Part shown: in pieces, positions 9,651 to 63,735 of the stretch
How the letters are laid out: each line of letters opens with the position of its first letter
Position numbering within the stretch: the first letter of the stretch is position 1
DNA from: Cenococcum geophilum
Lineage: Eukaryota
Direction: 5' to 3'
DNA: 64,000 bases
Assembly: GCA_050273025.1 (NCBI GenBank)
Contig: CP158635.1
Location: 496,001 to 560,000 of the forward strand
Position numbers and translations under genes: made by a program
The notes under the pieces: generated by a model
The model's input: the letters and a program-made list of their open reading frames with translations, nothing else
What the model was told of the DNA's origin: nothing
Database searches by the model: none

Positions 9651-9653
9651 AGT

Positions 9654-22833: not shown

Positions 22834-22987
22834 GATTTTTTTTTATATTTATTTTATATCCGTTGTATTATACTACGTACAATACTACACATGCAGCCTC
22901 TAGGCTATGGCGCTATAGTCCTATATATATAAATCCCTTAGGGCAGCTTAATATGTACTAGTAACTATGTCCTAGTAGTTTATAAGC
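22834..22987 (-). mobile_element. Short 5'-truncated non-LTR insertion of the same family as 20447-22072
   Basis: 10-bp TSD TCTACTAATA (22824-22833, 22988-22997), T-rich tail on the + strand, absent from the sister Gypsy at ~52780. Confidence 0.75.
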
Positions 22988-26750: not shown

Positions 26751-26896
26751 GGTCCCCGCTATATTCCCGATAGCCTCTACACGTGCCTCTGCCAAGTGTA
26801 CCCCTTATCTATATACCTAGGTAGCCACCTTATTTTTTACCCTTCCTTCCTTACATCCTCCCTACCTAGGGAGGCACCAGAACGGCAGCCAGCTGA

Positions 26897-27333
26897 GGAC
26901 CGTCGCCAGAACCAGACGACCGTCGACCGTCGCCAGAACCAGACGACCGTCGACCGTCGCCAGAACCAGACGACCGTCGACCGTTGCCAGAGCCAGACGA
27001 CCACCGTTCGAATATACAGCCAGCGAACGGCCGTAGAGAACGATTCGAATTAATACGATTAATCGATCAATCAAATCAGGCGGAGCCTTCGATCGGGCCG
27101 ACCTTTCCCCCAAATTACAGACAGGTAGGCATAGACAGTAGCACAGATAGGAGGCACAGACGGTAGGCACAGACGGTAGGTATAGACAGGTAGCACAGAT
27201 AGGTAGGTACAGACAGGTAGGCACAGACAGTAGGCACAGACAGGTAGGCACAGATAGTAGGCATAGACAGTAGGCATAGGCAGGTAGGCATAGGCAGGTA
27301 CAGACAGACAGACAGACAGACAGACAGGTAGGT

Positions 27334-27364
<31 letters not shown>

Positions 27365-27370
27365 CACTAG
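26897..27370. repeat. 27-bp repeat (GACCGTCGACCGTCGCCAGAACCAGAC) followed by a CAGA/CAGG/TAGG microsatellite; related module inverted at 37910-38560
   Basis: Directly visible. Confidence 0.85.
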
Positions 27371-38400: not shown

Positions 38401-39591
38401 CTGGTGACGGTTGTCTGGCTCTAGCAACAGTCGTTTAGCTCTGGCGACGGTCGTCTAGCTCTAGCGACGGTCGTCTATCTTTAGCGACAGTTGTTTAGTA
38501 ACGGCGACAGTTATCTAGTTCTAGCGATAGTTATCTAGTTCTAGCAACGGTCTTCTACTAGCTGCCGTTCTAGTGCCTCCCTAGGTAGGAAGGATGTAAG
38601 AAAGGAAAGAAGGGTAAAAAATAAGGCGGCTATATAGGTAGAGATATATATAGAGGCTATTAGGAATATAGCGGGGACCTAATGTAGAGCTTTATGTGAA
38701 GCCTTTATATATAGAGCTTCGCGTAGAGCCTTGTGCAGAGCTTTATATAGAGCCTCCGTACGCTTATCTTAGTTAACTTATCCGCTTCGCTAAGGAATTT
38801 AAGGAGGCGGCCCCTGCCCCCGTCCCACTTCACCGTGCTATAGCCCCACTCTAGTGCCATAGGCCCTCTTATATAAACTTATAAGCCAATTAGACGGTCG
38901 CTCCAACTTATAGGTACTTATTAGCTAATAGAACGCCGCGCTACCCTCTACTACCCCTACTACCCCTAAAATTTCCTCTATAAAGCGTCTAAGAGATTAT
39001 AAGTACGCGTTTAGTATAAACTGGGTCCTTTTTCTAACGCGTGTTAATTTTAAATAACTCTAGCGGCGTAAATATACCAGCTACGGTCTTAGTGCGCGAT
39101 GCATTTAAATTATAATCTCTTCTTTTATATAATTATAATAATTGTAACTAGCTAACTACCGTATTAGGGGGCGAGATACAGCCTTAAAGTTTAAGGGCGC
39201 GTTTTTAAAACTGGTTCCTCTCTACTAGTTACATTAAAATAATGGCCGTACTCTACTACTACCACTCTATTTCCTTCTAAATTTTTAAAGGTACTTCTTC
39301 TACCCTATAATAACTAGCTTGCCCAGTTAAACTATACCTATATTACCGTTATGTTGTATTCTAGTAGGCAACACAGTCGCAGTAACGCCTTTAGGGCGCT
39401 TAGCCTACGTTAGAGCACTCTAGTAATACCTTATAATATTTTAATAACTTATAGGAACTTATATAAACTTACACAAACTTATATAAACTTATTAGCTAAT
39501 TAGAGGGTAGGAAATAGTAAAGTACGGATTAAAATTAAAGAAGAAGTTAAAGAAGTTAAATACTTAGAGTCACTAGTATAAAGCTTATATT

Positions 39592-42543: not shown

Positions 42544-45500
42544 AGAGCCGTAGATAGATAGGCCACTTAGCGCGACCTAATTAGCTAATAAGTTTATATA
42601 AGTTAACGTAAGGATCCTGGAATGTAGATAGGGCATATAGTAGAGGTAGAAAGTAAGTAGTTAAACCCTAAATCAGCTGCCCTAATTAGCTAATAAGTTT
42701 ATATAAGTTAGTATAGGGATCCTAAAGTATAACTAAGGCGTATAGTAGACGTAGGAAGTAGGGAGTAAGCAGTTATATCCTAAGTCGGCCGCTCTAATTA
42801 GCTAATAAGTTTGTATAAGTTGGCGCGGGGATTTTATTATAAATAGGAAATATAAATAAGCTATTAGTTCCTACTATAGTATACTAATTAACCTATAGGG
42901 CGTTCTAATTAGCTAATAAGTTTATATAAGTTACTAAAGGGAGTGCTAGGGATATTATAAGGCCTATATAAGGAGGTAAAGATCTATTTTAGCGTGAAGT
43001 AATTAGTCTATAAGATTGCATATATTAGGTTAGGTCTAGCGCCTTAGCTTATTAATAGTAAAGTAAGTCCTATAATAGACCTTTACTTCTTTTTCTCTTC
43101 CTCTTTAGATACTTACGGTACTATAATTTTTTTAAAAGCCTCTAATATGTCTCTTACTACCTAGGTACTTATATATCTACTAAACTTCCCGCTTTAGGAG
43201 GAGCAAATCCTCCTCCTTACCGCTACTCTTTTACGCGGCTAACTAAGATTAGGGACTATCCGGCGTCCTCTATAAGTATTATCCTATTTAGTTCTTAACT
43301 ATTTAAGCGTCCTAAGGAGTTAGGGATTATCTTAAGGAGCTGGGAGACGGGTAGCTATACTTCCTTCTATTTAGTAGACCTATATACTAATATTCTTCTT
43401 AGTCCTCCTCCTCGCCCGCGCCGCCCTCGCCTACGCGTCCTCCCCTCTTCTTCTCCTCTTCTACCTCCCGCCCCCCTTTTTACGCCTACCGCCCCCGCTA
43501 CGCCTACTAGCCCTATTACGCCCACCTTTCCCCTTAGCGGCGATAATAATAATAATAATAATAATGGTATAGTCGGCCTCGCTGGGTATATATACTATAA
43601 TGCCTATTATATTAATTATTAGCTTATATATATATAGACCTATAACTTAGCCGCCTACCCCTGCCGCTAGCGCTACTTTAGGTCTTCCCTTTCCTCTTAC
43701 CTAAGTAGGCTTCTATACCGCCTAATTTGCTAACTAGCCGCGCCTGCCTTAGAATTAGTAACTTTAGGGCAAGACTATAGATAGCTATACTGCCGTCCGC
43801 TAGAGTAAGTAGTAGTTATCTCTCTAGACGGCTAACGGTAAGAGAAACCTCTTTTATATTAGGAGGATTATAAAAACGGAGCTAGGTAAGCAGCTTTATA
43901 ATAAGGATTAGTGCCTAGCTTACTAGGAGGGTAGCTAAAAGTGCTAGGTTTACTCTAGGGTAGGTACCTAGTAGGTGTATAAGCCTAGGGACGCTTATGC
44001 CCGCTATTATATAAGGGCCCGCCCTAGTAGATACTCTATCTTAAAGCGGGCTAAGCCTAAGCCTTAGTAGGTATTACTAGCTCCGCCCCTATAGCCCCTA
44101 TTACTAAAGGGACCGTAACTACCTTCGCCTAGAGCTAGGGGTATAGGGTTAATAGTATAGGGGATAAGGGGGTAGGATTTAGTGTAGTATAGCGTATCTT
44201 TAGACTCCCTTTACGGGGAAGGCTTTAACCTTGTTTTGGTAAAAGCTAGTATTTTAAAAGGGTTTAACTATAAGGCTCCTTATAGGTAAGCTTTAACCTT
44301 ATCTAGTTAGTTTAGATCTTATATAGGTAAAGAAGCTAGTATCTTAGGCGGGCCCAACTGTAGGCGTTATAAGCCCTATAGGTTAGGACATGTGGACTTA
44401 GCCTCTATCCCTAAAGAGAGTAGGCTTAATAGGCCTTTACTCTAGCGGAGTAAAAGGAAAATAATAAGTAAGTATAGTAGGCCTCTGCTTAGTGGAGGAT
44501 TAGGTAAGTAAGTACGGCGGGCCTTTACTTTAAATGGATAGTAAATAGGTAAGTAAGTATAGTGGGCCTTTATTTATAGTAGAAGTGGAGTAAGTATAGT
44601 GGGCCTCTGCTTTAAATAGATAGTAGATAGGTAAGTAAGTATAGTAGGCCTCTGCTCTAGGTAGAACGAATTTACTTTCTTATTTTACTATTAACCTACT
44701 ACTCTAATAGCGTAATATAATTGCATCTATTACTAACGCATAAAATTATAGATGGAGGCTAGTATGCAGTTACTATACGTAGGTAATAGCCTCTACTTTT
44801 AGCGGGGGTCTGTTAATATAAGCTGCTACTACTCTAGATACCCCTAAACTCTTATAAACTTATATAAACTTATTAGCCAATTAGGATAAAGCTAGGGGCT
44901 TAAGGATATTATCGCAGCTTAAGCAGAGGCCCTATATTAAGATGTCTTTTATAGGTACTAGCTATTACTCCTATTAAGTTCCGCTAATATAGGCCTCTAA
45001 ATATCTCCTAAACTTATATAAACTTATATAAACTTATTAGCTAATTAGGGTAAAGTAGGGGGTTTTAGGTTAAGATATATTGTCTAGCTAATAGCTTCTA
45101 CCCCTTATAGATAATAGCTTTTAGCCTTTATTAGGGCCTATTAATATAGGCTCTAGCCCCTAATATAGTAAACCCCTAAATAGCGGGCTCTAATTAGCTA
45201 ATAAGTTTATAAGAATTTAGGAGATATCTAGGTCTAGGGGTAGGCTAAAAAGAAAGAAAAATTTAGGAGCTATTAGGAATGGGGTTAGTAACCTAGGAGT
45301 CTAGCCTCGCCCTAATTAGCTAATAAGTTTATATAAGTTTAGGAGATATCTAGACTAAGTCTTTTAGCCTAGCTTACGCTTTAGATTATCTACCCTTAGG
45401 TTTATATCCTAAAGCTAAACCTATACATTTTAAGCTCTAAGAAGCGGTAATACCTATATTATTAATTTAAAGTGCTATAGGATAATATAGCTTATTTAGT

Positions 45501-45659
45501 ATAGACTAGTATAGGGCGATTGTTTAATATAATTAAGGCTATATATAGGGCTGGGGTAGAGGGGCCTTATAGGGTAAGGGAGAGGGAAACTCGTAGGGCG
45601 AACTAGAGAGGAAAGCTGCGCTTTAATTAGCTAATAAGTTTGTATAAGTACCCCTAAGT

Positions 45660-48650
45660 TTATAGGCTACTTAAAGCCTCCTAGCCAGCAGAAGGCATAT
45701 TGGAAGTAAGATTTAGTTCCTTTACGTTATCTATCCCGTCTCTAATAACGTTAATAAAGTCTTATATATCTATAAAGCTAGCTAGGTCCTCTATATCTAA
45801 AGGAGGATAAAAGGTAGTAACTAAACGCGGACCCTAAATATAAACCTAGTTAAACTTATTAACCTTCCTTACTAAAACTTCTACTTTAGTGCTAAAAATA
45901 TTATAAGAATTAAATAGGCGTAGGCCTACTAGCTGTGCTTATTGCCGTAGTATAGCTAGGTTACTAAAATAGAGATTCCGAGTAAGTATAAATATATTAA
46001 GGTCCGCCTTTACCCGTATATAGACACCTAATATCTCCTTACTAAATATATATTCTATCTTACTACGCAATATTCTAACTATTGTATTTAATAAGTATAC
46101 TTAATTAAATATAATATCTATATCGTAGGTAGAATTCTTATAGCACTTTATCTTGATTTTATAGCTTTTATTTAAGTACTCTAGCCCAAAATTAATAGCC
46201 TTATACTTGTCTAGAGCTCTAAACCAGTTTATTAACCTAGAGAATAGGATTATATACTAAAGTTTAGGCGAATTAACTAACGTAAGATTCTACTAATAGA
46301 ATAGCATCTCTTAACCGTAATTATGCTGCGACGTGCCGAAGAAGAATATAATAAGGGGGTTAATAAGCCGCCGTAGTATACCTATATTGGTATGCTTAAT
46401 AATATGCTAAATAGTAAGTAAAAGCTTAACCTCTTAAAGCATGTAACACATTGTCTAAAACTTAATATTATTATACTTCGCGCCCGTCTACGTATTCTAA
46501 GAAAAGGCGTTACACTAAATCTTATTAATGATGTCTAGGAACTACTTAGGCGTAAGGCAGCCGATGGCCCAGGTAGCGTCTTTAATACACTTAGGGGAAG
46601 ACGGGTTAGATAGGGTGTTTAGATTAAACGGCTTAGATAAATCGGGCATACTAATTCTAAAGCCTTAACGCTGTATAGTAGTATAAAAGAGAGTAGTTAT
46701 ACGCGCTATAAAACCCCGTTTAATAATAGGTACTAACTTATAGTATTTAGCATTCTCTTATATAATTATAGAGCAATTTTATAGCGTTATATTAGACTAT
46801 AGAGAGTAATAAGCCTCCTTTTACTTATCCTTAGGCGCAAAGTGTGTACGCATAAGAGTATTATATAGATTTATCTTAATATAGAACTATATAGGTATAC
46901 TAAGCAGCCAGTCCTAATGGTTAAAAGGGCGGCTAGTATAAATCTATTTTTATTTTACCGACCTAATATAATACATAGTAAGCTAGTCACTATAGGCAAG
47001 CCAGAGCTGCTTAGTAAAATTATTAGGAGTAGTGCTGTTATAAGGGTTATCTAGAGCCTGGAGACTAAGCTAATTAAGGAAAATGCTTTTATAGACGCTA
47101 TAGGTACCTTAGATAGTACTTTTATCCTCTATAATAGTACTAAACTGCTAAAACCTAGTCTTCCTATTGCTAATATATTGTATATTTAGTATTTAAGGGA
47201 AAAGATTACTCTCTTTAAAGATACACTCTACACTAGTAAGGTAAACCCCCTTTATTGCATTAGCAATAAGGTAATGGCTAATCTATAGTAATAACTTATT
47301 GCTAAAGCCGGAAGAGCGGTAGATGTCCTTAATATTTAGTAGGATAGTTAGATTATATATTAACTAATATAGCCCTAACAGAGGCAGTTTAAGACAGTAA
47401 ATAATAGTAGTAGTTATTAAGGAGTGTATAACAGACGTATAACTAAGTAGCTTATCGCGCTTTATATCCTTAAAATTTATATTATTATATATAATAACTA
47501 TTTAGGGGTTATGCGCTAGCGTTGTAAGATACCTTTATAGATGTTAGCCTCTAGCTAGCTAGTAGTCTATAGAGGCCATACTAATTGGCTTATAAGTTTA
47601 TAAAAGTTTATATAAGTTTAGCTAAGAGGCCGGGGTTAATAGATATACAGTGCTAATATAAAAACTAATATACCTTTACCTCTTCGGCAATACTACCTAT
47701 AGTATAATTTGCAGAATAATAACTATAGTATAATCTAAAGCTAGCTAACGTTTTAAACACCTTCCTTTTTATACTAAAGCCTATAAGATATATATCCACT
47801 ATTAAAGAAAGGAAATTAGACTAGTTTTTAGCCTAAGAGAAATAAATTATACTAGTAATAGCATATGCCCACTTTACTAGCGTATCCTAGCTATTTACCT
47901 TCTAGCCCTCCGCCTTTTAATTGCTATAACTAGCCCTATACGCCCGCTAATTGCTAAATAGTTATATTAAGGTTGTATACTATCTTAGGGTAGTATCCTG
48001 TATAGAGCGGAAGGCGACGTTAAAATCTAAGTCTTTAATTCTTAACGTTTTATTAAACGTGGTAAAATATAGTTCCTAAATAAGGCGATTTAGCTCCGTA
48101 GTATATAACTTTATTTATATATATAGGATATTACTTAGCTATGGGTCTCTTATAACTATATCTAATAGAGCCTAATACCGCTGCCTAATATAACTATACT
48201 AATAGTACTTAATTATAATTCCCTTCTCCCCTATGTTATCTGCCCTAACCTAAGTAGATAGGAACTAAGCGAAGCTCTAACCCTCTTTTTTTAACGTGTT
48301 AACTACAGCTTATAACCTCCGTGCGTACTTTCCCTACTTTCTATAACGCCTTAATAAAGGCTTAGGCGCCTTATTCTTATTACTACCTGTCTAGTTATCG
48401 CCTATATTATTGTTATTATTACTATTAGAGGGCTTAAATAGCTTAGTAATATTTTCTAACTAGCTAGAGAGGCTAGAAATAGAGGGGGGATAGCTAGGGG
48501 TGTTTTGGTTAGAGTGATACCCATTTAGGGCACGGCTGGGCTTTATTATGGATAGATTCTGTAAAGTAAGAGGAGGGCTTTTAAATAGAGGTATTAGCGA
48601 GTTAAGCGGTAGTATATTAGGGGGCGATATACCGCGTTAAAGGCGATATA
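45660..48650 (-). pseudogene. RIP-degenerate Academ transposase (DUF6589-type); ends approximate
   Basis: IYNNINF (from YDN.NF) ~47480; DKSTI*GT; LWLAYSD*LT (from HGDQLT) ~46990; *FYIKIN (from WFH..MN); FFGTSQHNYG*EML ~46320; LINW....KAINFGLEYLN (from VN..G...K.IDL.LEHLN) ~46200. Confidence 0.8.
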
Positions 48651-49239
48651 ACCGTCGTCTACTAGGTAGGCTGGTCTGCCTTTATAAATCGCGCCTATTT
48701 TCCCTTAGACTGTAACGGAACCTTATAGTAAGAACTATAGTAGGTCCTGTTATTAGGCTAGGTGTATAGGAAATGCAAGTATAAAAGTTAATAACGTAAT
48801 AATAACTAGTGGAGTAGTTGCCTAATAGATTAACTCTAATTGTATTCTAAGAATTACTATAAGGAAGGAACTATCTAGGTAGGGACTAAGGGTCCTTAAA
48901 TATACAACCGTACTCCTAAGAAATCCTTCTTGTACGTGATATACGTGTACTCTATCTGCTCTGTTATAGATTATATAGATCCTATAGATTATATAAATTA
49001 CCCTACGTGACCTTAGTTACTATTCCTCGTTATATAGCTCTATTGGCTCTATTCTAGACCGTGCCTAAATTAACTAACTAGCTTCTTCCAACTCTTCCCT
49101 AAGTAGTCGTAATATTATACTTAAAGCGTCCGTAATACCATCTCCCTCCTCTTAATCTTTGTCCTTAAAGATTCTAAATATCTTTAAGTTATTTACTAGA
49201 GGTATAATATCCGTCTAATTAATTTGGTTAATATTATTG

Positions 49240-49950
49240 CTTATTATACCTAAAGCAATTTCTTCTTCTTTAACTGCTTGTCGTACTCGCACTATTACTG
49301 CGATATTATCTTTTAGTGAGATTATACCATCTCTATATTCTCGCTGTTTGAAAGAGGGGTTGGTCTGTGTTGCGTTAGCGAACCCATCTTTGTGATAACT
49401 ATCCTCTTGCTTAGAGTGCACTAAAGTGAATATTTATTTGTCCTATAACGTTTGCTCTGTCTCTAATGCTAAATATACGTAACCTATTACTTTTAATAGT
49501 TGTCTAGTTCTCTAATTAATTTATTTTAGGGTCTTATATTTAATCTACTGCTATACGGCTTAATAATAAACTGTCTGTTACTCTTACTAAATTGCGTTGT
49601 TCTTAGGACGCTAAATGGGAGGTAGCCGATGCTTAGCAACGGGCCCTTAAGTCTCGTCTAGCGGCGTCCGCTTAACTAATCCGTCTTAAGAAGGTGTATA
49701 AAAAGGTTTGTTTTAAGGAGTGGAAACTTATAAAATAAGGTTTATAGGAACTTGGCGATAAAAGAATGGATTCTCTTCTAATAGAGAAGGAAATAGATCT
49801 AAGTACTTCGGCAACTGCTCTTCTTAGGTCCCCCTTAGGTAACTTATTTTTTAGCGATCCTTTTTTATTAATACTGCCTAACCTAATCTCTTCTAATACT
49901 CCTATACCTTTTTTATAGCGTTCTTTAAATTTTCTAGTGGCTCCTAGGTA
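49240..49950 (+). pseudogene. Antisense, probably spliced Cys-rich ORF in the 3' region of Gypsy A
   Basis: PSLYSRCLKEGLVCVALANPS...SSCLECTKVNIYLSYNV (six-Cys pattern after RIP reversal), candidate intron ~49475-49529, then a coiled-coil-like stretch. Confidence 0.55.
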
Positions 49951-52088
49951 GTCTTAGTATAGCCTATCTACTTTACCTTATACTATATTTCGTCCTTAAT
50001 GTCCTTATAGTTAACAATCTTTAAAACTTACTATTTGTCTTCTTCCTACCCTCTATATATGTCTGCTTTATAGGCTAATAGCCTAATATTCCTATATGCT
50101 GGCTCTAGCATTATAATGTGCTGTATAGGGTAGATCTTTATTTTAGCTAGTAGGTTTAACTTAAACGTGACCAGTAAAATCTTTTACGTAATTTTAAAAG
50201 GTCCTAGTCTAACGTAGTCCAATTTCTTACTTAGTTGTTAACTCTTAAAATTTTTGTATAGTAGCTATACTTTATCTCCCTCCTTAAGATCTGGTCCCTT
50301 AGATCTCTTAGTATTATAGTACCTTTTTATTTTTTTTTGTACTTTCTTTACTAATTCTATAAGGTCTATATAAAGATTTATTAATATCTTTATTTTTTCT
50401 TTAGCTATACTACTTGTTTTCTTCGCTTATTATAGTAATAATAATATTCTTAACTTATATCCGTAATTTACCTTAAATAGTAATATGCCTATTCCTTTTT
50501 AAGGTGTTATATTATACGTAAACTGTATAACTGGTAATAGTAATACCTAATTATTCTATATATGATTAATATAATGCCTTAGATACTATTCTAGTGTTTA
50601 ATTTAATCTTTCCGTCTAACTGTCTGTCTGCGGATAGTATATAGTGGAAGTTGCTACTTAAACTCCTTACTTTGCTAAGAATACCTTTTAGAATGCTACT
50701 ACAAATCTTAGATCTCTATCCGATATAATCTTGCTTAATACTCTATGTCTTATAAATACTTCTTTAATATAGATTCTAGCGACATCTTTTACTAATATCT
50801 CTTCTGTATAGGCTATAAAGTATCCCTACTTTGTAAGCTTATCTACTATTACTAAGATCGCGTTGTGATCTTATCCGGTAATAGGGTCTCTTAATTTTAG
50901 TAACTTAACGATAAAGTCCTATAATATGACCTCCTATAGTCTCTTTAGTATTTTAATAGGTTATAGCCCTCTATATGGCTTATGCCTTATTAGTTTATTT
51001 CTTTAGTAATTTAGACACTCCTTTATAACCTTCCTGGCTATCCTCTAGATTCTATTAATAATGTACTCCTTTTAGAGTCTTAATACTAAGCCCGTAGCTC
51101 CGTTGTGTCCTTAAGTTAATCCCTTATAGAATTCTTCTATAAATTGCTCTGCTATGCTTCTTAGGATGTACTTTACTTCTTAATTTTTATATATATCCGT
51201 TTATAGATCTTCTAGCTATACTTCTAGAATCCTTTATTCCTAAAAGTTCTCTAGTGACTTATAAACCTTATTTAACTTATTATCTTCCTAAGTTGCTATG
51301 ATTTTTGGATAATTATACCTAATTAATCCGTTTATATCTTTTCGTAGTAAAGCCCCTAATGGCTTTTCATCGTTCTATAGTTTAGCTTTGCGGCTTAGAG
51401 CATCTACCTATATATTATCTATACCCTTAGTATACTAAATCTTAAAATAGTATTCTGTAAGCATCTCTGCCTATCTAACCTGTCTTTAGTTAAGTTCCTT
51501 TATTATTAGGAATCCTATTAGGTTCTTATAATCCGTCTTAACTATAAATGGTTTCTCTGTGCCTTATAAAAATACTCTCTATTTCTTTAGTGCTATAACT
51601 ATACCTAATAACTCCTTATTATAGATGTTATAGTTTAACTTTAGTGGTGTTATCCTTTAACTATAGTATGCCACTAGGTGCTATCTATTTTAATACCTTT
51701 ATATAAAGTATACCCCTAGTATATAATCTAATGCATCCGTTTCTACAACCGTTTCTAGTCCTAGTTAATAAATTTTAAAAACTGGCTCCTAGGTAAACAA
51801 CTCTTTAATTTTCTTAAAGAGTTTTTGCTATTCCTCTCCCTATACCCATAGTTCTTCTTTCTTTATTAATCGCGTAAGTGGCTTAATATCCTTTAACTAC
51901 TGCGCTATAAACCTCCTATAGTAATTGCAAAACCTTAAAAACGATCTTAACTGCGTAACGTTCTCTAGTTCTTACTAATTCACTATAGCCTTAATCTTTT
52001 TTAGATCTATACTAAGTTGGCCTAGTTTAATAATAAATCTAATAAAATCGGTCTTCCTAGTAAAGAACTCGCATTTCTTAATTGCTAC

Positions 52089-52328
52089 TGTGGGAGGGTA
52101 CGACCACTCTCAGATAGGAAAGTCACAGTGCTGTCTGTCTGTCGGTCGGTCGGTCGGTCGGTCGGTCGGTCGTCAGTCGTAATCAATCAGTAGGAAAGCA
52201 GTCAGTAAGAAGAAAGGAAAGAATGTATTTTCGGTAGGTTCTGATGTGTAAGAAGGAGGGAAGCCGAAGGCTTGATATATACAGGAAAATGCCAAGGTAC
52301 TAGGCGTAAGCCATTTTACCCCACCACA
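52089..52328 (-). mobile_element. Solo LTR inserted in the RT of Gypsy A
   Basis: TG...CA ends, 4-bp TSD CTAC, homologous to 19379-19620, little RIP. Confidence 0.9.
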
Positions 52329-55300
52329 CTACTAATATCTATTCTTCTTATAGTCTCCTTAAGACCTATTTAATATATTCCCCGTGTTCTTCCTTAGTTA
52401 TTAAGTAGATAATAATATTATTAAAATATACTATAATAAATTCATCTAAGTATTCTCTTAATACATTATTAATACGCTTCTAAAACATTGCTAGTGCGTT
52501 TATAAGCCTAAATTATATAACTAATAGTTCGTATAGTCCTTCCTTTGACCTAAAAGCTACCTTTTATTTATTGCCTTCCTTAATTCTAATCTAATGGTAC
52601 GTCTATCTTAGATCTATCTTTATAAAAATTTACGCGTTACCTATCCTATCTTAGATTTCGCTAATTAAGGGTAAAGGATACCTATCCTTTCTAGTAATGC
52701 TGTTTAACTATCTATAGTCGATATATAGCCTTAGTTTGCTATTCTTCTTTAGTATAAACAGTACTAGATAACCTGCTAATAACTGCGATGGTCTAATATA
52801 TCCCTTTTATAGGTTTTCTTAGACAAACTCTTTTAATACTCTACCTTCTTCTTTAGTAAGCTTATAGATTAAAAAGAACTTTAGACTTATTCCTAGTTCT
52901 AACTCTATCTTATAGTCCTATACTATATAATTTAATAGCTTTTTACTTTCCGGTAACCATAGTTTCTTACTATATTTGTAGTATCTCTTTAATATATAAC
53001 TTAAGCCTTGCTTAGTTTCTTTATATATCGCTCTAACTTAGTACTATACTAACTTGGCTTATTGTTATACCTTATAGCGTCAAGTATCTCTAATATTAAC
53101 CTAGCCTGTAATCCAATTAATCCTTAGATTGTATTCCTATAACTAAAGTATACCTAATACTGCCTCATCCCTTTCTAATAGTAGGATATCGAAAGACATC
53201 TTAATTTATCTCCCTTTAATAGTTAGCTAAATAGGTCCTATTTCAAGATTAATAATCCCTCCTCTATAGGCTATTGGATCTCCTAAAATTATTACTAATA
53301 GGTAAGGTTCCTCCTTTTGCCTATAAGGTAATCCCATTCTCTTAACTGCTGTTAGCGAGATATAGTTCCTTATTGCTCTACTATCTATTAATGCCTTAAA
53401 CTATTAATCTTGCTATTTAACTTATAAATTTAGGTATTATCCTTAAATTCCTTTAAGGGTCTAAGGCTCTACTACTAGCTCCCTCTAGTCTTGTAGGCCT
53501 TTACTTTTCCTAACTATTAGCTACTTAATCCTTGTGCACTTGGCTTACTCTTTAGCCAATACCTAGTTTGCTTTTTGTCTTTAATATACTATAGATATAT
53601 ATTCTCTAGGTATTCCCACTACTATTATTCGTCTAAGCATTCTTCCGTAAGGAATCTTTCTAGTTAAAGTATTAAGTTGCCTAACTCCTAAACTTCCGCT
53701 AGATGCTAGCTATGCATATACTTAGCATTCCTATATTATTGCTTATCTATTATCCAATATATCCTTATAGGGTATTTCTAATTTTTTTCCTTTAGATTCT
53801 TATACATCTTATATATATCGTCCATATATGCAATCCATAATAGCGTATAGTATGCTAGGTGCTTTAGGTCAACTCTTAGCTCGTCTTTATCCTTAAGTTT
53901 AAACCTTTACTATGCTGATCTAAACGTTGCGACCTCGTTTGTAGGTACTAAGATGCGCTTCTTACTTCTCTAGTCCTCTAATCGTTTCTCTAGATCCTTT
54001 AATATTATGATTAAGGCTCCTTTAATGTGACTTATAGCCTTCTCTATAATTAGGTAGTCTTAGATAACTTTTTTATCTAACTATATATAGAAATCTTCCT
54101 ACTCATCATTGTGTTGTTGTCTATACTACTTTTAGTATAGCTACTAGAGTGTATACGGCTTGTCTGTAAGGAAGTATCTTCTTATTACTATGTTGTAACA
54201 GCCCTTAGTATGTCGTTCTTTGAACCTAGTAGGAATTCCTAAATCCTCTTTATTTTCCAGTTCGGTAAGCTACTTAGCTCTTAGTATGCCTGCCCTAGGC
54301 CTATTAGTAATTCTTTATATTAGCGCTCTGTCCTTTATATGTCCCAATATGCTAGATCTCTTATCTAGTTTCTATTCTTACTATGCGATAATTCTTTGCC
54401 TAAATTTCTCTATAGTTTCCTTTAGTTTATATCTTACGTTTAGATTCTTAAAATCTTTTTACTTCTTAATCTTGGTATTAACTTTTCAATCTTTAGTCTA
54501 AACACTGTATTCTACTAGTAAGTCCTTTAGGTCCATATATCTGTCTTTTAGTCTAGTTACTGTTTATATCGCAGATTCTCTAATTTATAAAGAAGCCCTT
54601 TACCTCTTATCTGTGGGTGTTCTGATTTGTACCCTAAATTCTTAACCCCTTAGATTCTTTAATCCTAAGCTTACTTTTAACTTAAGCTTAGCTCTAGCCT
54701 TAGTCTAACTAGGCTTACTTAGTGTTCTTATCTCGTCTTAAGAGTCTTAAATCTTACTTATCTTGTCTTAAGAGTCTTATACCTATGGGAAACTTCGTCC
54801 CAAGCTTATTCGTATATCTTTAAACTAAGCTACTGCTCTGCTTTATTGGTTTTCGTCTATTATAGGTCTTTAAGCTTGCCTTATCTCGTCTTAAGAATCT
54901 TGGTCGTCTTTTATCTTATCTTAAGAATCTTAAGCCTTTGGCCTTTTGCCTTTATTAAGTGCCGAAGTAGTTTGCTGTCCTACTTCTCTTATATCTTATA
55001 AAGCGATAGACATTGTGTCTAGTGGGGTTTTGATCCCTACTAATATTCCCTATTCTATAGTAGAATTATCCTCTACCTCTAGTGTAACATCTTTAATGGC
55101 TACGTGTTCCTAATAAACCGCTCTTATTACCTTATTGTTACGAAATATTTCGCCTATATTAAAATTATTGTCCTTAATATCCGATCTATAAACTGGTTCA
55201 TTGGTTCCCCTATATCCTGTAGGTGCTAGCTCCTATAGCTAGTAGCTTGCGCCGTACTTAGCGTCTTTATAAATTTGGTATATATTGTTATAACAAAACG

Positions 55301-57184
55301 CAAAACTTTTAATTAAACACTCTTTTGTTCCTTGTAGTATATTATTATCCCTCTATACGTATATATTGTCTGCTGTTAGTCTAGTTCCCTTTATTATATA
55401 GTATCTCTAACTATCTTTATAATCCCTTACGAAGTGACCTTGTTTTCTGTAATTTATATAAGCTCCCTCTCTAAACTATTACTTTTGCTATAGAGTCTGC
55501 CTAAACGTCTTCTACTGCTGAGATCCCTGGTTTGGCCTCTACTCCTTAGACCTTTAATTACTTAATCCTTATCCTCTAGGTTTCTACGGTTTTTTGCTCC
55601 ATCTCTTATAGGCTTTTTTAGTACTACTTAGGTCTATTAGCTCTGCGCCATACTATAATTTTTAATTTAGCTTTGGTTGTTATATACTCTGCGCCTTATA
55701 TAATTATAGAACTCTATTTTAACCTCTCTTAGCCTATTCCCTTTAGTAGATCTAATTGTTAATCTTAATCGCTTAATCTATTAGTTCCCTTAGGGTGTCC
55801 GTATCTTTTATTAGAATAATTACGTCCTAGACTTTAGCCTTAAGTCCCTATTTATACTATACTATAAGCGCCCTATTATTCTACTTTACTTATATTGCTA
55901 ATATTTAGAACTATATTATATACTTAATTGCTAAGGTTCGTTACGTAATATCTTAGAGTTTTCTTTTTATTATAGTTACTGCCTCTAGGTCTCTAAATAT
56001 TTGTATAAGTCGCTCTATAAATCCGTTCTAGCTTAAGAACATAAACTGTACCTCTTAGTTTATAGTTATCATTTTATTTACCTGGATTTCTATAAGGTAA
56101 GGCTTAAACTATTTAAGTACTTTCCCTATTAAGAACAATCCTGCGTACGCTATTTAATCCATAGGTATTGCTAGCTTAGCTCCTTCTTACGCTACCTTAA
56201 AGTATATTTACGTAAGGAATCCTTTAAGCTTTAATCTCTTTCCTAAGTATCTTTTAATCAATAGTAACTTAACCTTTGCTGCGCCTATCCTGTTAATCCT
56301 ATTTTCCAACGTTATATTATTTTCTGTTAGCTAGTCAACTATCTCTTATAGCTGTCCAACCGTTACAGGTTGCTATAAGTTAGTATCTGCTATACTAGTA
56401 TCGTTACCTAACCTTAAAGTAGTTGCCGCCGTTAATAGCGTTATGGTGGCTGCTTTTAGTGGTATATTATCCAACTTATTGTATTTAATACTGTAACTAG
56501 GTAGTAATTGTGTAACGGAACCTTGTAGTAAGAACTACGGTAGGTCCTGTTATTGGGCTAAGTATATAGGAAATGCAAGTATAAAAGTTAACAACGTAAT
56601 AATAACTGGTGGAGTGGTTGCCTAATAGATTAACTCTAATTGTATTCTAAGAATTACTATAAGGAAGGAACTATCTAGGTAGGGACTAAGGGTCCTTAAA
56701 TATACAACCGTACTCCTAAGAAATCCTTCTTATACGTGATATATGTATACTCTATCTGCTCTATTATAGATTATATAGATCCTATAGATTATACAGATTA
56801 CCCTACGTGACCTTGGTTACCATTCCTCGTTATATAGCTCTATCGGCTCCATCTTAGACTATGCCTAAATTAACCAACTAGCTTCTTCCGACTCTTCCCT
56901 AAATAGTCGTAATATTGTACTTAAAGCGTCCGTAACATAGACCCTTAGAGAGGAATCTAGCTCAAGGCTCTGTAATTGGCTACATTAGCTAGCGCAAGCG
57001 CTAGCGCCGCAGGCGGCGTGCTACCTACTACTGATTGGCCTATAAGTACCTATAAGTTGCAAGGGTGCTAAATATAGGCCCCTGTGGCGCAGCGCCAGCC
57101 GCTAATTAGCTCATAAGTATATATAAGTTCGTAGGCCCGGGCCGAATTCCTCTCCGAGGGTCTAAGTTAACTGAGATAACCGTA

Positions 57185-57495
57185 CGCAGAGCTTCGCGTA
57201 GAGCCTTGTGTAGAGCCTCTATACGTAGAGCTTCGTGCAGAGCTTTGTGCAGAGCTCCGTGCAGAGCTTCGTGCAGAGCCTTGTGCAGAGCTTCGTGCAG
57301 AGCCTCCGTACGCAGAGCTTCGCGCAGAGCCTCTGTACGTAGAGCTTTGTGTAGAGCTTCGTGTAGAGCTTCGTGTAGAGCTTCGTGTAGACCTCCGTGT
57401 AGACCTTCGTGTAGAGCTTCGTGTAGACCTTCGTGTAGACCTTCGTGTAGAGCCTTGTGCAGAGCCTTGTGTAGAGCCTTATGTAGAGCCTCTAA
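57185..57495. repeat. 12-bp minisatellite (reverse-complement orientation, GTGYAGAGCTTC)
   Basis: Continuation of the array interrupted at 38763. Confidence 0.9.
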
Positions 57496-58328
57496 GTAAT
57501 AAGACTATATAAGATTATATAAGATTGCGTAATTAGTATATAACTTTACCTTAATTGCATATCAAGAAATATGCAGTTAGCTTTTAAAGTTGTTAAATAG
57601 GTTAACTGCGTATTAAGGAATATAAGTAGGTTAACTGCGTGTTATTTAACTTTTAAATATATTAAGTTAGTCAATTGCGTATTAAGTTAGTTAAATTATA
57701 TGTTAAGTTGGTCAATTGCGTATTAAGTTAGTTAAATTGCGTATTAAGTTGGTCAATTGCGTGTTAAGTTAGTTAATTACGTGTCAAGTTAGTCAAATTG
57801 CATGTTAATTACGCGAAACGCGCTATACAAAGTCTACTTAAATCTCATCCTGCCAATATTTTCCCGATATAGGGACTATAGTCCTTTAAAATATATAATA
57901 CCGCGCCTAATAAATATACTAAGTATATTAGTACGTTAGTATATTGGTACGTCCTACGTTCCTCTATTCCCACGTTCCTATATTCCGAACTTATAACGCA
58001 ACTAACCACGTAACTCAGTCTTATAGCTTAACTAGCCCTAGCACCTCCCATACTTCCACCACTAGTCTATTTATATCTCTCCTTAATAGTGCTACTGCTG
58101 CTAATATAAGGTCCGTAACAACTACCTCTCTACTTTATTATAACCTCTACTATTCCGGATAAGGCCGCTTAAAGAGGTATGTAAGTCTTTCTATATAAAG
58201 AAACGCATTAAGTATTATAAATATTAGTTAGTAATATAAAATTAAAAAGAGCCTTATTATAACCTTACTAAGAGAACACCTAATTACAGAGCTGAAGAAA
58301 ATAAGTCAAAGGCGTCGCGGTCGCATTA

Positions 58329-58557
58329 ACGTGGTTAACGGGGTTTTGACCGCTCCCTGAGTTATGACCGTTTTGAACATCAAAACTTTACCTAGGTTAT
58401 ATCTATCACGCCTAGGTAAGCCTTATCACGACACACCGCCTTTTAAATGTATGTGTTACTTTAATTTTGGCAGAACAACAAAACTTTACTTAAAACAGCA
58501 GGCGGTACGCTAGCGCGGTCATAACCCAGGGAGCGGTCAAAACCCCGTTAACCACGT
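58329..58557. mobile_element. pogo/Fot1-type MITE (229 bp)
   Basis: 42-bp TIR ACGTGGTTAACGGGGTTTTGACCGCTCCCTGRGTTATGACCG with one mismatch; TA on both sides. Confidence 0.9.
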
Positions 58558-58952
58558 TACGAGTTAAGGTTGTTCGAATATTTCCATTTGATATGGGCGA
58601 TCGATCTACATACGGCTAGTAGAAGGCTTGATCGACACGCACTTACATCGAGATGTGACAAGGTGGTCTACGTATCCACGTAATCGCGCAAGGCTGAATG
58701 GGGAGCAGGGAACTGTCTGGGGCTCGACCACCGGTCTATGCGGCTGTGATGCCGAATAGCTGCATTTGGTGGAACGAATAAAAAACCGCCACATCACCCT
58801 CGCCAAGAAGCCTCTCAATGGCTCGCCGTGGCTTCTAGGAGATTTACTACCACAAATTCGCATAATCTCCAAGGTGAGTCGTCTTCCCTCTTTATTGCGA
58901 GTATCTATCGGCGAGGAATACTGCGCGACTGTAGTCACGTGCTGTCACCAGT

Positions 58953-61900
58953 ATGTTTAAGTTTGGCAAGAGCCGGAAGAATTACTCTACGGCGCAACCT
59001 GGCCCTATTGCGCCTCGGCCTAGTAGTACCGAAAAATATGGGTTGTTTCCCTTGAAGGCGGGGGCGCTATCTGAGGCGACAAACTCGCTGGTAGAGTAAG
59101 AATGTTATAGCACGATAGAAAGGGGCGAGGCTGACTACTGTAGTATTGTGGCTATTCATGGCCTTAACGGAGATGCTTTCGGGACGTGGACAGATAAGGA
59201 AGCCGACGACCAAAACGCTAAAGAGCTTTGGCTGGAGACTTTGTTGCCCCAAGCTATTCCGGAATCGCGGATCATGACTTTTGGGTATAATTCTGCTGTT
59301 ACTAATAGTGTGTCCGTAAGCAAGATAGAGGATTTTGCGACGGATTTGCTTATACGGCTTAATGGGGCGCGGAACACAGAGGAGGTAAGCTTTTTGGAGA
59401 GGTTATGGCTATATGGAAGGTACTAATTTGTCGAGTGTGGAAAACGTCCATTGATATTTATCTGTCATAGTTTGGGAGGACTTGTCTTCAAGAAGGTATA
59501 TAACAAACACTCCAGTTTTGTGAAATAGCTATTAATTTTCGTATAGGCTTTAGTTCTGGCACATGAAGCTAGGATCCATTTTGGCGATGTTTTGGATTCA
59601 TGCTATGGGGTCATGTTCCTGGGGACCCCGCATAGGGGATCAAATCATGCCTCGTGGCCAGCTACGCTTTCTGAAATTGTTAACACGGTGACTTGGACAA
59701 AAAGGCTCAGATCGGATCTTCTGAAAAACTTGAATGTCAATGCAGATGGCCTGATGACACTTTCACGACAGTCTGTACAGAGGCTGGCTCCCCTAAAAGT
59801 CCTCACTTGTGTGGAACAGAACGTGATACCACCTCTATCAACTGTGGTAAGTGTGTCTATGGAGTGCGCTGAAAGAGTATTAACTATTGTTCAGATAGTA
59901 CCGCCGGAATCCGCTGTTCTGGCCATCAGGAACGAATTCGTCATTCCTGTAAATGGCAATCATCGAACGATGTGCACGTTTTCTACCAACCAACCCCAAA
60001 AATTCCAGCCTGTTCGTGATGCATTGGTAGGGATGTGTCAAGATGCTCTTCAATCGGCTCAAGCAGCACATTCGCCTCCAGTGAACATCACAACACCGAT
60101 CCCAGATAGGCCAGCTTTGACCAATAGCTCATCCCAAAGCAGTATCATTCTCACACCTAGTAGCTCAACACCTCGTTCAGTCATTCACCAACAACCCACT
60201 AGCATGTCCTCAGGCTCTTCAATCCTGCATCGTAACATTTCTGTGCCTCAAACACCTTCTGTATCACCAACACAGTTATTACAGGGTGACACCGACGCTT
60301 ACCAAAATACTCTTCGAAGCTGCCGGGACCAGCCCGAGGCAAAATTGATCGTATGTGGCATGCACAGGCGCAACTCTGGAGGTGTATACGAAGACTTTGA
60401 AGGAACTTTCGTAGTTCCTCAGGACACTGAGGTCAATGACATACCTGAATTTATTCGCACCCAAAGTAAGTCAAGCAAACAGCTAGTGGAAAGCTCAACT
60501 ACTAAATCTGTAACTGTAAGACGTCGGTTTCTTGAAGGAGTACACTATTGGGCCTTGTGAATATAGGGCGGACATTGCTTTTCTTGGCGAAAGCTCTGTT
60601 ATCAGCAAGACTCGTTCTGACTATGAAACATCAACTATTGAAGTGGTTGCTGGAGCGCCATCGTTCAACGTTTCCAGAGGTTTGAGAATCAACAGAAAGC
60701 AACGATTTGCCGAATTTTTCAGCAAGCTCTACCCCGATACCTCTAATCCGAGCCTTGAAGGCGGAGAGTCCTCTTTGCGTCGTCCTACCAACAATACTAT
60801 TCGATTTGGTCCAAACCGCAATTCGCGGTGCTTGCGTATTTCTTTTATGAGGACTGTTCGAATCCCGCAAGATGGGAAAGATCACAAGCTTCCACCAGGC
60901 CTTGGCAAATTTCCCCTTTTCAGCGTAAAGGACTTCGAAAGAAAACTCCCCAGAGAAATGATCTCCAAAGGGGGTATATTCTTTCCAATGTATCGTATGT
61001 CAACCCTCTGAACACCCAACCTGTTGAAAGGCACTGGAATTAATCAGACCCCCACAGAACGAGAGGCGATGTGGGTCATGTTTGACTGTCCAAAAGATCA
61101 ACATTATGTCATCCGACCGTTTGTTGGTGGTGTTAACGGCATATCAGGAGAACCAATGATTGGAGATATGCTCTCACTGATGCGGCGCTTCAACAGAGTC
61201 ACGCAGGAACAAGATTATGTTGTTGTACCTGAACAGCCGTGGTTAGATGGAATTGCGATCTCTCCGGGCAAAGTTGCCCAATTTGTAGCAACTGCCGTCA
61301 AAGGTACTGACGACAGTGGAGGCAGATTCGACAGGTCTCGAGCACCACAAGCACCAATGTCTCAGTCCTTTGGGCCGAGATCGATCGAGTATGAAGTGAC
61401 TAAGAGAGATGTAGTGGGTGGCTTTCAGCTTCAAATCATTCCCCAATACAATACGACTCGAATGTCATTCTCGAACGAGCAGGATGTTTGCTTTATTGGC
61501 GAGACTTCAGAGTCTGCACAACCAATACGCCACGTAAACGCAAGCAAGTACGACGTGTTAAAGAATTCAATCGATCTTGGGCTTGAGGTGGGAACTAAGG
61601 TATATGTCAAGGACGTCGGAGAAACTCGAAAGGCACCTAGAACGAAGGTTGTTCGGGACATGTGGGATGAGATTGCAGAAGCACAACTCTACGCCCAGGA
61701 AATCAAGATAGAAATACACTATCTAGAAACGCAGAGACCACCCGTTCCTCAGAGCGAAGTCATTGTTACTGAAGTCGGCGGACAGGAAATTGAACTTGAG
61801 GTAAATTCGTCCTTATTTCTTCTAAACGGACTAACAAGAAGACAGATAGAAGGTAACTCAACCTCTATGGCTTTGCGTGACCTACTTTACAGAAGCTTTC

Positions 61901-63735
61901 CTGTTACAAAGGACGACTCGTATGGTATTCTCATAGCCGGAGCCGTAAGTAATCAGCCAGCAGCTATGATAGAAGCTGGCACTGTGTTCGACTTTCTTCT
62001 CCTTAAGCGATTCATTTCTGAAGACGCAGCGGAAATGACCGTGAACAATAAGAAGTGTTATCAAGCAACATGGGTACGTACCTCTTTGTAACGCAAGAAA
62101 ATTAGCTGAAGTGTACCCCAGGGGCCACGTAGACTTACGACATCCTGGGAACACCTTTATTGGATCAAGCTACCGGGTGCACGCAATAAGAATGGCGGCT
62201 TTCCTCTTTTCGGCGAACAGATCCTATATATGGATCGTGAGCGTTTGTTTCCCATGGAACATCACATTATCCCTGCCAAGAATTTGAACAAAAACTTCAT
62301 TACAGTAATTCGCAAATACGACGAACGACCGTTAGCAGATCTCCGTGCGCTTATGGGCCTGGAACAATACAGCTCGACTTTGGGGCCAATCAAAATGTTG
62401 TGGATTTGGCAGGAAACAAGCTACCAGATATTTGTAAAAACGCTTACTGGCAGGACGATTACACTCGAAGTCGAGGCCAGCTGCAGCATTGGTACCATTA
62501 AGGCCAAAATCCAAGATAAGGAAGAAATCCCGCCCGATCAGCAACGGCTTATATTTAAGGGTAGGCAACTCGAGGACGGTATGACTCTCTTCCTATTACT
62601 TGTGAAAACTAGCTAATGGTTCCTAAGAGAGATATATCATTCAATATGACATTCAAAGGGTAACTTATAATGCACTTGTTCTCACGTATAGCCTGTCCGC
62701 TAAGACATATTTCTTAGGAAGCCACTCTTCACCTGGTTCTCCGTCTTAGAGGGGGACAACCTCCAGTGTCAGTGCGCCTATCCGATGGAAAGACATTTGA
62801 TGTCGCTATCGGAACCAACTTCACAGTATCCTGGTTAAAAGAGGAAATTCGCGCAAAAGCTGCCATTGCTGTCGATGAACAGGTCCTCATATGGAATAAC
62901 ACTATCCTTAAAGATGGCAAGAATGCACTAGTAAATTTTGACGCTCGAAGTTAACGCAGCACAGGTCGTTTACCCAAGAACATTTTCGAACATACTGTCT
63001 ACGTGGACCTTCGAGCCATCTCACCACTATCCCTTGCTGCCGGCGGAAACATCACGCAGTCCATAGCAGAAGATCACAATGACCCAAGAATGTGGGACGT
63101 TTCTTGCGCCAAGCTCCTCAACATCCAGATCATTAACGCCGCCCACTTTGAAGATGTCACCGGGTTGTTGACACCTGCTACCCCTGTGGATGCCAGAATG
63201 TACCGTGATCTAAAAATGCCTTATTTCGAGATCTATAATGAGAGTCCGTCGAGCGTGGGCGTTGGAAATACAACCTGGCGTAGCGTGACAGCCGCTCTGG
63301 GTTCTGCGCAGGATAGCAATGTGTTGACGTATGATCCTAATAATCCACCAAGGTGCTCCAAATACAACGTGGACTGCTCTAACCTAGCCGATCAATTGTA
63401 AGTTATACCCTCTGGCTTATCTTATTCCACTCTTTATAGAGTTTATTCTCTGCCTGTTATGAAAGTACCAAGCTAAGCACCTCAAATCCAGCGCCCGCCC
63501 CTGCCAACACCTTTTCTGCGACTCTTGCTGGGCAGAATACCGGAACAGACGCAACACCTCGACATGTCCGGATTGTTCGCGGCGAATTGACAGAATGATC
63601 CGGATCTTTAGTCCTGAAGTCCCGGTAAGAGCTAGTATGGATCATGATTCCGCTAAGAATCCAGTTGTGTTGTTGCAGGATTTGGGCGGGGCGGAGCTGC
63701 CGAGGTTTAGGAGTATTCAGGAGGCTAAGGAATAA
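58953..63735 (+). CDS. ~1374-aa multidomain protein: SesB/PGAP1-like alpha/beta-hydrolase, S/P/Q linker, uncharacterised split domain with embedded ubiquitin and UBL, C3HC4 RING finger
   Basis: Predicted exons 58953-59095, 59144-59384, 59436-59495, 59547-59846, 59895-60465, 60521-60994, 61058-61800, 61846-62073, 62122-62578, 62628-62659, 62718-62916, 62965-63397, 63492-63735 (4125 nt, open). Motifs: [79 protein letters not shown]...[16 protein letters not shown]...CPDC. Confidence 0.85.

Follow-up and report, generated by a model that had tools for sequence, protein, structure and literature searches.

The locus considered here raises the question of what a protein may do that carries, on a single chain, an effector domain known from fungal NOD-like receptors (NLRs), a ubiquitin placed inside another folded domain and a RING finger, and whether these parts belong to one gene at all. 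It lies at positions 58953..63735 of a 64,000-nucleotide stretch of the genome of Cenococcum geophilum, a fungus that lives in symbiosis with roots (assembly GCA_050273025.1, contig CP158635.1, positions 496,001 to 560,000), which is the whole DNA analysed and is called the window below; the window ends 265 nt past the stop codon of the gene. Briefly answered, one mRNA gives one Cenococcum geophilum protein of 1374 amino acids (aa), having in this order a SesB-like hydrolase, a linker, a β-sandwich core with ubiquitin and a second ubiquitin-like domain (UBL) in one of its loops, and a RING. The overall explanation that best suits these features, held with a confidence slightly under even, is that of an NLR-like lipase effector that dispenses with the NTPase and would be controlled through a cleavable or conjugatable ubiquitin. 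A prediction made earlier from the DNA letters had described the gene as a candidate self-contained conjugation or immunity system. The observation behind it is confirmed and its interpretation is supported in part, as the gene encodes neither an E1 (ubiquitin-activating) nor an E2 (ubiquitin-conjugating) enzyme, and a role in immunity or conjugation is something that we infer.

A single spliced transcript encodes the whole protein

The coding region, like all gene features given below, is on the + strand and consists of 13 exons (58953-59095, 59144-59384, 59436-59495, 59547-59846, 59895-60465, 60521-60994, 61058-61800, 61846-62073, 62122-62578, 62628-62659, 62718-62916, 62965-63397 and 63492-63735), separated by 12 short introns of 45-94 nt and closed by the stop TAA at 63733-63735. 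Its open frame of 4125 nt, comprising 1374 codons and the stop, translates letter for letter into OCK91831.1/XP_067501327.1, deposited as 'uncharacterized protein K441DRAFT_640868 [Cenococcum geophilum 1.58]' and labelled P0001 in this work. The same database protein was returned by a search with exon 7, being 100% identical and of exactly the same length.

Regarding the transcripts, all 12 splice joints were found in single contigs of three RNA-run assemblies (X1, 4574 nt; X10, 4245 nt; X5, 4885 nt) with 0 differing letters, and 20 RNA runs from 17 studies contain about 0.80 of the words sampled from the locus. What such assembled contigs document is the existence of the spliced form in the libraries, and neither the expression level nor the transcript ends. 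The exons and the frame of the 13-exon model proposed in the original prediction are therefore borne out by RNA and by P0001, except at intron 11, which in the annotation and in the RNA contigs is a GC..AG intron of 48 nt (62917-62964). A GT..AG alternative for this intron (62931-62978), of the same length and in frame, differs in four residues (1151-1154) and is not the form seen in RNA.

That a hydrolase gene and a ubiquitin/RING gene had been wrongly joined in the model could be suspected only from the long low-complexity linker between them and from the earlier doubt about 60465-60521, the place where separate transcripts had been expected if the fusion were false. Against this, all three contigs splice 60465 to 60521 and carry the frame unbroken through every joint, and at least 14 further members of one clade share this architecture, so that the chance of such an artefact is next to nil.

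The motifs noticed earlier are all present in the product, namely the nucleophile elbow CHSLGG (Ser140) and the downstream histidine of GNHRTMC (His271), together with QPWLDGI, AAGGNITQ and PMYQREAMW, the last straddling the joint of exons 6 and 7. Pfam recognizes in P0001 a ubiquitin (2.3e-33, residues 1023-1094, plus a second stretch), zf-C3HC4 (2.5e-05) and DUF676 (0.0029). No NACHT, NB-ARC or other P-loop family was detected by Pfam at E<=0.01, in agreement with the claim that a P-loop NTPase is missing, and no ankyrin, TPR, WD40 or HEAT repeats were found by Pfam either.

The hydrolase head and NLR-like architectures

The α/β serine hydrolase of the SesB-like or DUF676 type covers 59145..60020 (residues 49-290), with Ser140 encoded at 59469-59471, Glu238 at 59814-59816 and His271 at 59961-59963. 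P0001 itself scores 17.6 bits against DUF676 (PF05057), below the gathering score of 20.3 bits, which is passed by its clade relatives P0004 (29.0), P0005 (23.7), P0007 (23.5), P0141 (28.7) and P0230 (24.1 bits). When residues 40-300 were used as a query, 216 matches at E<=1e-3 were obtained, with E down to 2e-63, in proteins of 755-2405 aa. Among the 119 non-self matches listed, 104 carry an NTPase family related to NACHT, NPHP3_N or NB-ARC (PF24883, PF05729, PF00931, PF13401 or PF13191), most of them with ankyrin or TPR repeats as well, and of the 15 listed matches lacking such a family, 3 are further long forms with a ubiquitin (P0229, P0231 and P0123, the last from Trichoderma virens). The identity to the NLR-type N-termini reaches 35-49% over about 90-100% of the region 40-300.

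When 124 such N-termini were aligned, P0001 agreed with the consensus at 34 of the 34 positions conserved in at least 90%, including Ser140, Glu238 and His271, which are kept in 115 (within HSLGG), 117 and 119 of the 124 sequences, respectively; Glu238 is the likely catalytic acid. 'SesB-like' is the term applied to a canonical N-terminal domain of fungal NLRs in the accessible text of two studies (PMC12258605, PMC9815663). Due to the homology to NLR heads and to the retention of all 34 conserved positions, the N-terminal domain of P0001 is the SesB-like lipase head of fungal NLRs, as had been proposed, and looks catalytically intact. As a separate observation, residues 126-312 (about 59376-60086 of the window) match the PADLOC model PDLC02918 'DUF626_VIII' (E 5.8e-10), a candidate bacterial defence-system protein family.

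The distribution of this head was followed in a FastTree of the concatenated core halves with 125 rows, of which 82 are short fungal or eukaryotic forms, 19 are long forms and 24 are bacterial (every third available). The hydrolase-fused long forms gather in one clade of 15 rows with a Shimodaira-Hasegawa-like (SH-like) support of 96, covering Dothideo-, Leotio-, Sordario-, Eurotio- and Lecanoromycetes and including the genera Cenococcum, Zopfia, Tricladium, Dactylonectria, Mariannaea, Bombardia, Trichoderma, Pyricularia, Cladophialophora and Cladonia. The closest relative of P0001 in the tree is P0007 from Tricladium, where the RING is also present. A separate clade, formed by P0131, P0138 and P0212, has ankyrin repeats after the core, and P0131 bears a PigL_N/SesA-type head before it (31.7 bits, cut-off 27.2). 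P0186 likewise has ankyrin repeats behind the core. Both PigL_N/SesA-type heads and ankyrin repeats belong to the domain vocabulary of NLRs, according to the available text of PMC12258605. Two independent head fusions, one SesB-like and the other of the PigL_N/SesA type, thus place the core where NACHT stands in fungal NLRs, and the sister clade, with its PigL_N/SesA-type head and ankyrin repeats, is laid out like an NLR in which the core stands in for NACHT.

What defines the NLR-type proteins of fungal immunity and cell death is an NTPase switch at their centre. By this definition P0001 is not an NLR, because it has no NACHT/NB-ARC and no repeats. It still shares with fungal NLRs bearing a SesB-like lipase the homologous N-terminal domain with its catalytic Ser and His, as well as the order of head, central module and C-terminal module; whereas these NLRs combine NACHT or NB-ARC with ankyrin, TPR or WD40 repeats, as described in the accessible parts of PMC12258605 and PMC9815663, P0001 has neither, its centre being the core with ubiquitin and its C-terminus a RING. 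The same effector heads are here wired to a different central module, the SesB-like lipase here and the PigL_N/SesA-type head with ankyrin repeats in the sister clade. An even chance is given to P0001 being an NTPase-less counterpart of a fungal NLR, engaged in conflict or regulated cell death, where the lipase would be the executing part and the core would act at the centre, in regulation or recognition, as NACHT does in NLRs.

The same head can also be read as a non-immune lipid or protein deacylase of the DUF676/PGAP1 type, acting in membrane or protein quality control, with RING and ubiquitin as an ordinary link to turnover and the likeness to NLR heads reflecting common descent only. Such a role would be consistent with the matches of clade members to Pfam DUF676 and PGAP1, with the expression of the gene in three of three RNA assemblies and with the conservation of the clade over five ascomycete classes, which is more conservative than in typical fast-evolving NLRs. 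However, NLR heads dominate the relatives of the hydrolase, as seen by the 104 of 119 listed matches, the core has further fusion partners in a PigL_N/SesA-type head and in ankyrin repeats, both NLR vocabulary (PMC12258605, available text), the distribution is patchy and the gene sits at the edge of a repeat block degraded by repeat-induced point mutation (RIP), the deacylase reading being considered unlikely.

The core domain and its nested ubiquitin

The core, called 'IMP' from the family label 'integral membrane protein', is encoded in two halves, at 60832..61473 (residues 543-735) and 63015..63302 (residues 1167-1262), which are recognized by hidden Markov models (HMMs) from the bacterial alignment with independent E-values (i-E) of 4.4e-44 and 1.1e-20, respectively. 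It amounts to about 300 aa in P0001, where one of its surface loops harbours some 490 inserted aa, and the prediction that the PMYQREAMW/QPWLDGI/AAGG domain is interrupted by ubiquitin and a UBL is hence upheld. No match to any Pfam, NCBIfam or PADLOC family was found for the core, either in P0001 or in the bacterial members. A 157-residue query from exon 6 returned 1205 representative clusters at E<=0.001, most of the named members being fungal proteins of about 450-550 aa described as 'ubiquitin-like domain-containing' or 'integral membrane protein'.

A search in which each prokaryotic species was represented by one genome yielded 209 candidate bacterial stretches, and 178 of them proved to be relatives of the core, their best segments being 42-50% identical. 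They come from Myxococcota, Actinomycetota, Chloroflexota, Cyanobacteriota, Planctomycetota, Bradyrhizobium and others; 80 of the 178 were kept, with 76 or 66 homologues entering the later counts. The core is of bacterial ancestry, and its occurrence in both fungi and bacteria, stated in the original prediction, is real. The bacterial proteins are contiguous, with about 320-360 aa, and have a short, variable and disordered linker exactly at the site of the fungal ubiquitin. Regarding the C-terminus, DGxW forms the very end of 57 of the 76 bacterial homologues, after a disordered tail, and the fungal members end in the motif PV.L...F.S.

Because fold searches with the model of the fungal relative P0015 (m1aa4b626f25c) were filled by ubiquitin matches, a bacterial homologue was modelled instead. 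The AlphaFold2 model, calculated with a 66-sequence alignment, has a predicted local distance difference test (pLDDT) of 89.5 and a predicted template modelling score (pTM) of 0.87, and is disordered only at residues 179-199, which are the insertion site, and in the C-terminal tail. Its structure matches span residues about 11-241, so the strands of both core halves build one β-sandwich, a point on which the AlphaFold2 models agree. Among solved structures, Foldseek found no PDB match at E<=0.001 (best E 0.16, template modelling score (TM) below 0.2), VIA-align found none of 48,161 chains at Z>=5 (best 4.4, with generic Ig/MSP/p53-like sandwiches), and the profile of the bacterial alignment had 0 matches among PDB sequences at E<=10; this absence of a close solved relative does not prove a new fold. 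The structural neighbours in the ESM Atlas are the same orphan bacterial clusters only, one of which has VWA in 41% of its members. DUF7918 (PF25534), for which no mention was found in the literature, is a weak lead from structure: bacterial clusters bearing it align with TM 0.47-0.48 over 176-185 residues of the bacterial core in the ESM Atlas, but 0 of 66 bacterial members match PF25534 at E<=10.

Membrane spans are expected to reach a 19-residue Kyte-Doolittle mean of 1.6. None of the 76 bacterial homologues has such a stretch (maximum 1.38) and the helices of the bacterial model have at most 8 residues, thus the name 'integral membrane protein' is a misnomer, and the misleading label of the family can be corrected. 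The core fold is also observed in predicted models of giant-virus proteins in the BFVD database, namely Harvfovirus A0A3G5A0P2 and A0A3G5A5W8 (E 5.7e-22 and 1.3e-20; TM 0.66-0.69) and Hyperionvirus A0A3G5A6D8, which is annotated as 'ubiquitin-like domain-containing protein'.

The association of this core with ubiquitin is on record. Sibbald, Hopkins, Filloramo and Archibald (2019, BMC Genomics 20:38; PMC6332867, its main text and supplement 1 being the parts cited here) described 'ubiquitin-IMP fusions' in 88 species, 63 of them fungal, where the ubiquitin is N-terminal, C-terminal, poly, split or internal, the internal form occurring 'in the majority of fungi', with bacterial and eukaryotic IMPs interspersed in their tree. 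Supplement 1 names 'Cenococcum geophilum (OCK91831.1, Poly V1)', which is P0001 itself, and Diplodia seriata KKY16312.1, which is P0041, as well as a second ubiquitin-IMP protein of Cenococcum geophilum (OCK91279.1) and Glonium stellatum OCL08054.1. P0001 belongs to these fusions, having the same partner domain, homologous to bacterial IMP, with the ubiquitin in frame in the middle of it, and being listed by the authors. Their study covers the phyletic distribution only; hydrolase and lipase have 0 occurrences in its main text, no function is proposed there, and its account is silent on the RING and the SesB-like head, on sister architectures resembling NLRs and on the retention of Gly-Gly (PMC6332867, same parts). 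Because the ubiquitin-IMP family has been described without functional characterisation, it is not an already characterised housekeeping family of the kind that would have spoken against the original prediction. The literature search, with other supplements outside its scope, found only Sibbald et al. on core and ubiquitin and did not find the lipase-core-ubiquitin-RING architecture, which the accessible portion of a β-grasp review (PMC1949818) does not mention. The core with an internal ubiquitin is already published, and the lipase head, the RING coupling and their proposed meaning are new, as are the gathering of the hydrolase fusions in one clade and the correction of the membrane label.

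The first part of the loop insert (61474..62421, residues 736-1020) is conserved in the long-form clade and has no family. The ubiquitin follows at 62422..62756 (residues 1021-1096; Pfam, 114.2 bits), its coding part being split by two introns with a 32-nt micro-exon and its LRLRGG being encoded at 62739-62756. The second UBL comes directly after it at 62757..63014 (residues 1097-1166), detected by a local UBL HMM (i-E 9.5e-08 at 1101-1151) and as the second Pfam stretch, and contains the GC..AG intron 62917-62964; a second UBL in this position is also present in P0003, P0004, P0007 and P0229. Compared to human ubiquitin, 57 of 75 aligned positions are identical (76%), and LRLRGG (residues 1091-1096), L8, I44, H68, V70, R42, R72 and R74 are kept; the residue after Gly1096 is Gln. 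Among the lysines, K6, K27, K29 and K33 are kept and K11, K48 and K63 are replaced by Arg. In the relatives, P0015 keeps K11, K48 and K63, and Zopfia P0004 has K11E and K63R.

Across the family, a ubiquitin-like insert is found in 65 of the 110 stored proteins having both core halves, and Gly-Gly occupies positions 75-76 in 57 of these 65 inserts, mostly as LRLRGG followed by Gly, even with the body at 33-50% identity to the reference ubiquitin. This pattern is evidence, new in this work, that Gly-Gly would be under selection. As the retained tail lies outside the ubiquitin fold, the C-terminus of the ubiquitin may be in use, cut by deubiquitinases and perhaps conjugated, and the idea that the ubiquitin in the loop has a functional C-terminus and is more than a passive domain is about equally easy to believe and to doubt. 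Any such cleavage would come after Gly1096, which places it at 62756/62757 of the window.

Ub-eL40, Ub-eS31 and polyubiquitin are ubiquitin-fusion precursors and substrates of deubiquitinases, and the ubiquitin genes that supply the pool encode an invariant protein. P0001 has in common with such precursors an LRLRGG ubiquitin directly continued by polypeptide; unlike theirs, its ubiquitin is internal, sits within the loop of a folded domain, has 1020 residues upstream and is not invariant. That P0001 is simply a precursor gene supplying free ubiquitin, with the partner being incidental, could be argued from the intact LRLRGG and from a family fused to ubiquitin in many positions (PMC6332867, main text and supplement 1), yet the release from mid-chain needs two cuts and no mark for cutting is seen at the ubiquitin N-terminus. 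Moreover, 18 of 75 aligned positions differ from human ubiquitin, K11R, K48R and K63R among them, and the ubiquitins of other members are 33-79% identical to each other, making this explanation very remote.

The RING finger is encoded at 63354..63576 (residues 1280-1322), spanning the intron 63398-63491, with C1280, C1287, C1298, H1300, C1303, C1306, C1319 and C1322 as its eight ligands in C3HC4 order (C-C-C-H-C-C-C-C) and a zf-C3HC4 score of 24.5 bits against a cut-off of 21. A RING thus closes the protein as predicted, although its first ligand pair is spaced C-x6-C instead of the canonical C-x2-C found in the RING-bearing relatives P0009, P0015, P0035, P0063, P0066, P0070, P0149 and P0210. 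The RING of P0001 is accordingly treated as that of a putative E3 (ubiquitin ligase), of an atypical kind.

Proposed mode of action

In the favoured reading, deubiquitinases of the cell would cut the chain after Gly1096, with both halves of the sandwich remaining associated non-covalently and a free ubiquitin Gly-Gly forming the end of the lipase-bearing fragment. An E2 would be recruited by the RING of the second fragment, and ubiquitination would determine the state of the lipase fragment or what becomes of it, through conjugation, turnover or release; this last part, in which the RING decides the fate of the lipase, is possible and rather doubtful. RINGs occur after the core in several separate clades of the family, and this recurrence, with the published fusions in varied positions across eukaryotes (PMC6332867, main text and supplement 1), is the ground for linking the core to ubiquitination. 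A more far-reaching version is a self-donating ubiquitination device, where the 1096-residue fragment with lipase, half-core and ubiquitin would act as a giant modifier, loaded by E1 and E2 and directed onto targets by the RING fragment still bound via the shared β-sandwich, a cell-death lipase being in this way delivered by covalent ubiquitin-style attachment. In this version, fungi, protists and giant viruses would have reused the IMP sandwich, inherited from bacteria, as a module dedicated to coupling with ubiquitin, one that replaces the NTPase switch of NLRs; such a device is regarded as quite improbable.

The main rival to the favoured reading is that of the ubiquitin as a permanent domain regulating a RING E3. 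Accordingly, ubiquitin and the second UBL would be uncut docking or auto-inhibitory modules for the RING of the protein, the proteasome or p97, within a RING E3 that has a lipase domain and is never split. It is a serious minority option, with clearly less than an even chance. Integrated UBLs are present in Parkin, Rad23 and UHRF1, and their placement beside RINGs is a common design. Parkin, an E3 with UBL and RING whose UBL has no conjugatable tail, resembles P0001 in joining both in one chain and differs in the type of RING and in the order. On the other hand, integrated UBLs normally lose the Gly-Gly tail, and a proline right after Gly-Gly blocks deubiquitinases; in the present family the Gly-Gly, usually within a whole LRLRGG, is retained outside the fold in the 57 inserts mentioned above, even at 33-50% body identity, and the Gln after Gly1096 poses no such block.

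Several points, part of which favour the permanent domain, count against the favoured reading. A ubiquitin inside a folded domain could simply remain uncut. Non-ubiquitin inserts occupy the loop in 45 of the 110 members, and 8 of the 65 ubiquitin-like inserts have no Gly-Gly, therefore cutting is not essential to the function of the core. No natural split form was found, as 0 of the 345 stored proteins end in ...RGG, in a sample that was not assembled for that purpose; when residues 25-296 of P0015 were the query for proteins with half a core and a ubiquitin ending in GG, the matches were swamped by polyubiquitins. The replacement of K11, K48 and K63 by Arg fits a non-extendable modifier and equally a decaying domain, and suits an uncut module as well. 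To these are added the unusual first ligand pair of the RING and the fact that the structural models represent P0015 and one bacterial homologue, not the protein of the window.

The bacterial neighbourhoods are to be placed on the same side, having no defence signal, with 0 PADLOC matches for the core. The most recurrent neighbour is a sigma-70 factor of the extracytoplasmic function (ECF) type, found in 16 of the 76 loci, some of them from Myxococcota, where it lies immediately upstream of the core in divergent orientation, with Sigma70_r2 and r4 in 6 of 6 tested cases (examples of core loci being L001:4893-5783(-), L011:4682-5917(-), L032:4961-5983(-) and L046:4749-5906(-)). In 5 other loci the core is flanked by genes with an XRE-type helix-turn-helix (HTH), 3 of 3 tested being confirmed. 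Across the 76 loci, the neighbourhoods offer regulators only and no enzymatic partner.

Should the conserved Gly-Gly be used, as the favoured reading has it, P0001 would be a rare example in which a ubiquitin lodged within a folded domain serves as an in-built switch for cleavage or conjugation. The central module concerned has more than 1200 representative clusters, descends from a bacterial family that lacks both a Pfam entry and a solved structural relative, and has been repeatedly joined to ubiquitin in eukaryotes. Even on a sober reading, P0001 provides a testable handle on this large orphan family, as it points to a candidate position for cleavage, to the serine of the catalytic site and to the ligands of the RING.

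The remaining parts of the protein are less distinctive. The Ser/Thr/Pro-rich linker (residues 291-440) and the pre-core stretch (residues 441-542), at 60021..60831, match no Pfam family, the latter being common to other long forms, as positions about 17-100 of the exon-6 query match long proteins only. The N-terminal half of the core has a private insertion of 28 aa (residues 677-704), and the C-terminal tail (63604..63732) has the family motif (PVVLL...F.S.), as seen in alignments.

Regarding the setting of the gene, the flank 1..58900 is AT-rich, poor in open reading frames (ORFs) and biased in its dinucleotides in the manner of RIP, in line with the earlier remark that the gene lies next to a block of transposable elements. 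This 58-kb upstream block has a GC content of 26-50% and hardly any ORF of at least 120 aa besides 12-bp minisatellites. The usual RIP thresholds are 0.89 for TpA/ApT and 1.03 for (CpA+TpG)/(ApC+GpT); the block shows 1.48-1.76 and 0.42-0.65, respectively, compared to 0.82 and 1.17 in the gene, which is unbiased. Arrays of 12-bp units are found at 14619-15015, 15379-15886 and 25512-26687 (33, 42 and 97 copies, respectively), and periods of 24/36 bp at 57186-57489. The minisatellite arrays are the sole GC-rich islands of the flank and the source of spurious long ORFs on both strands.

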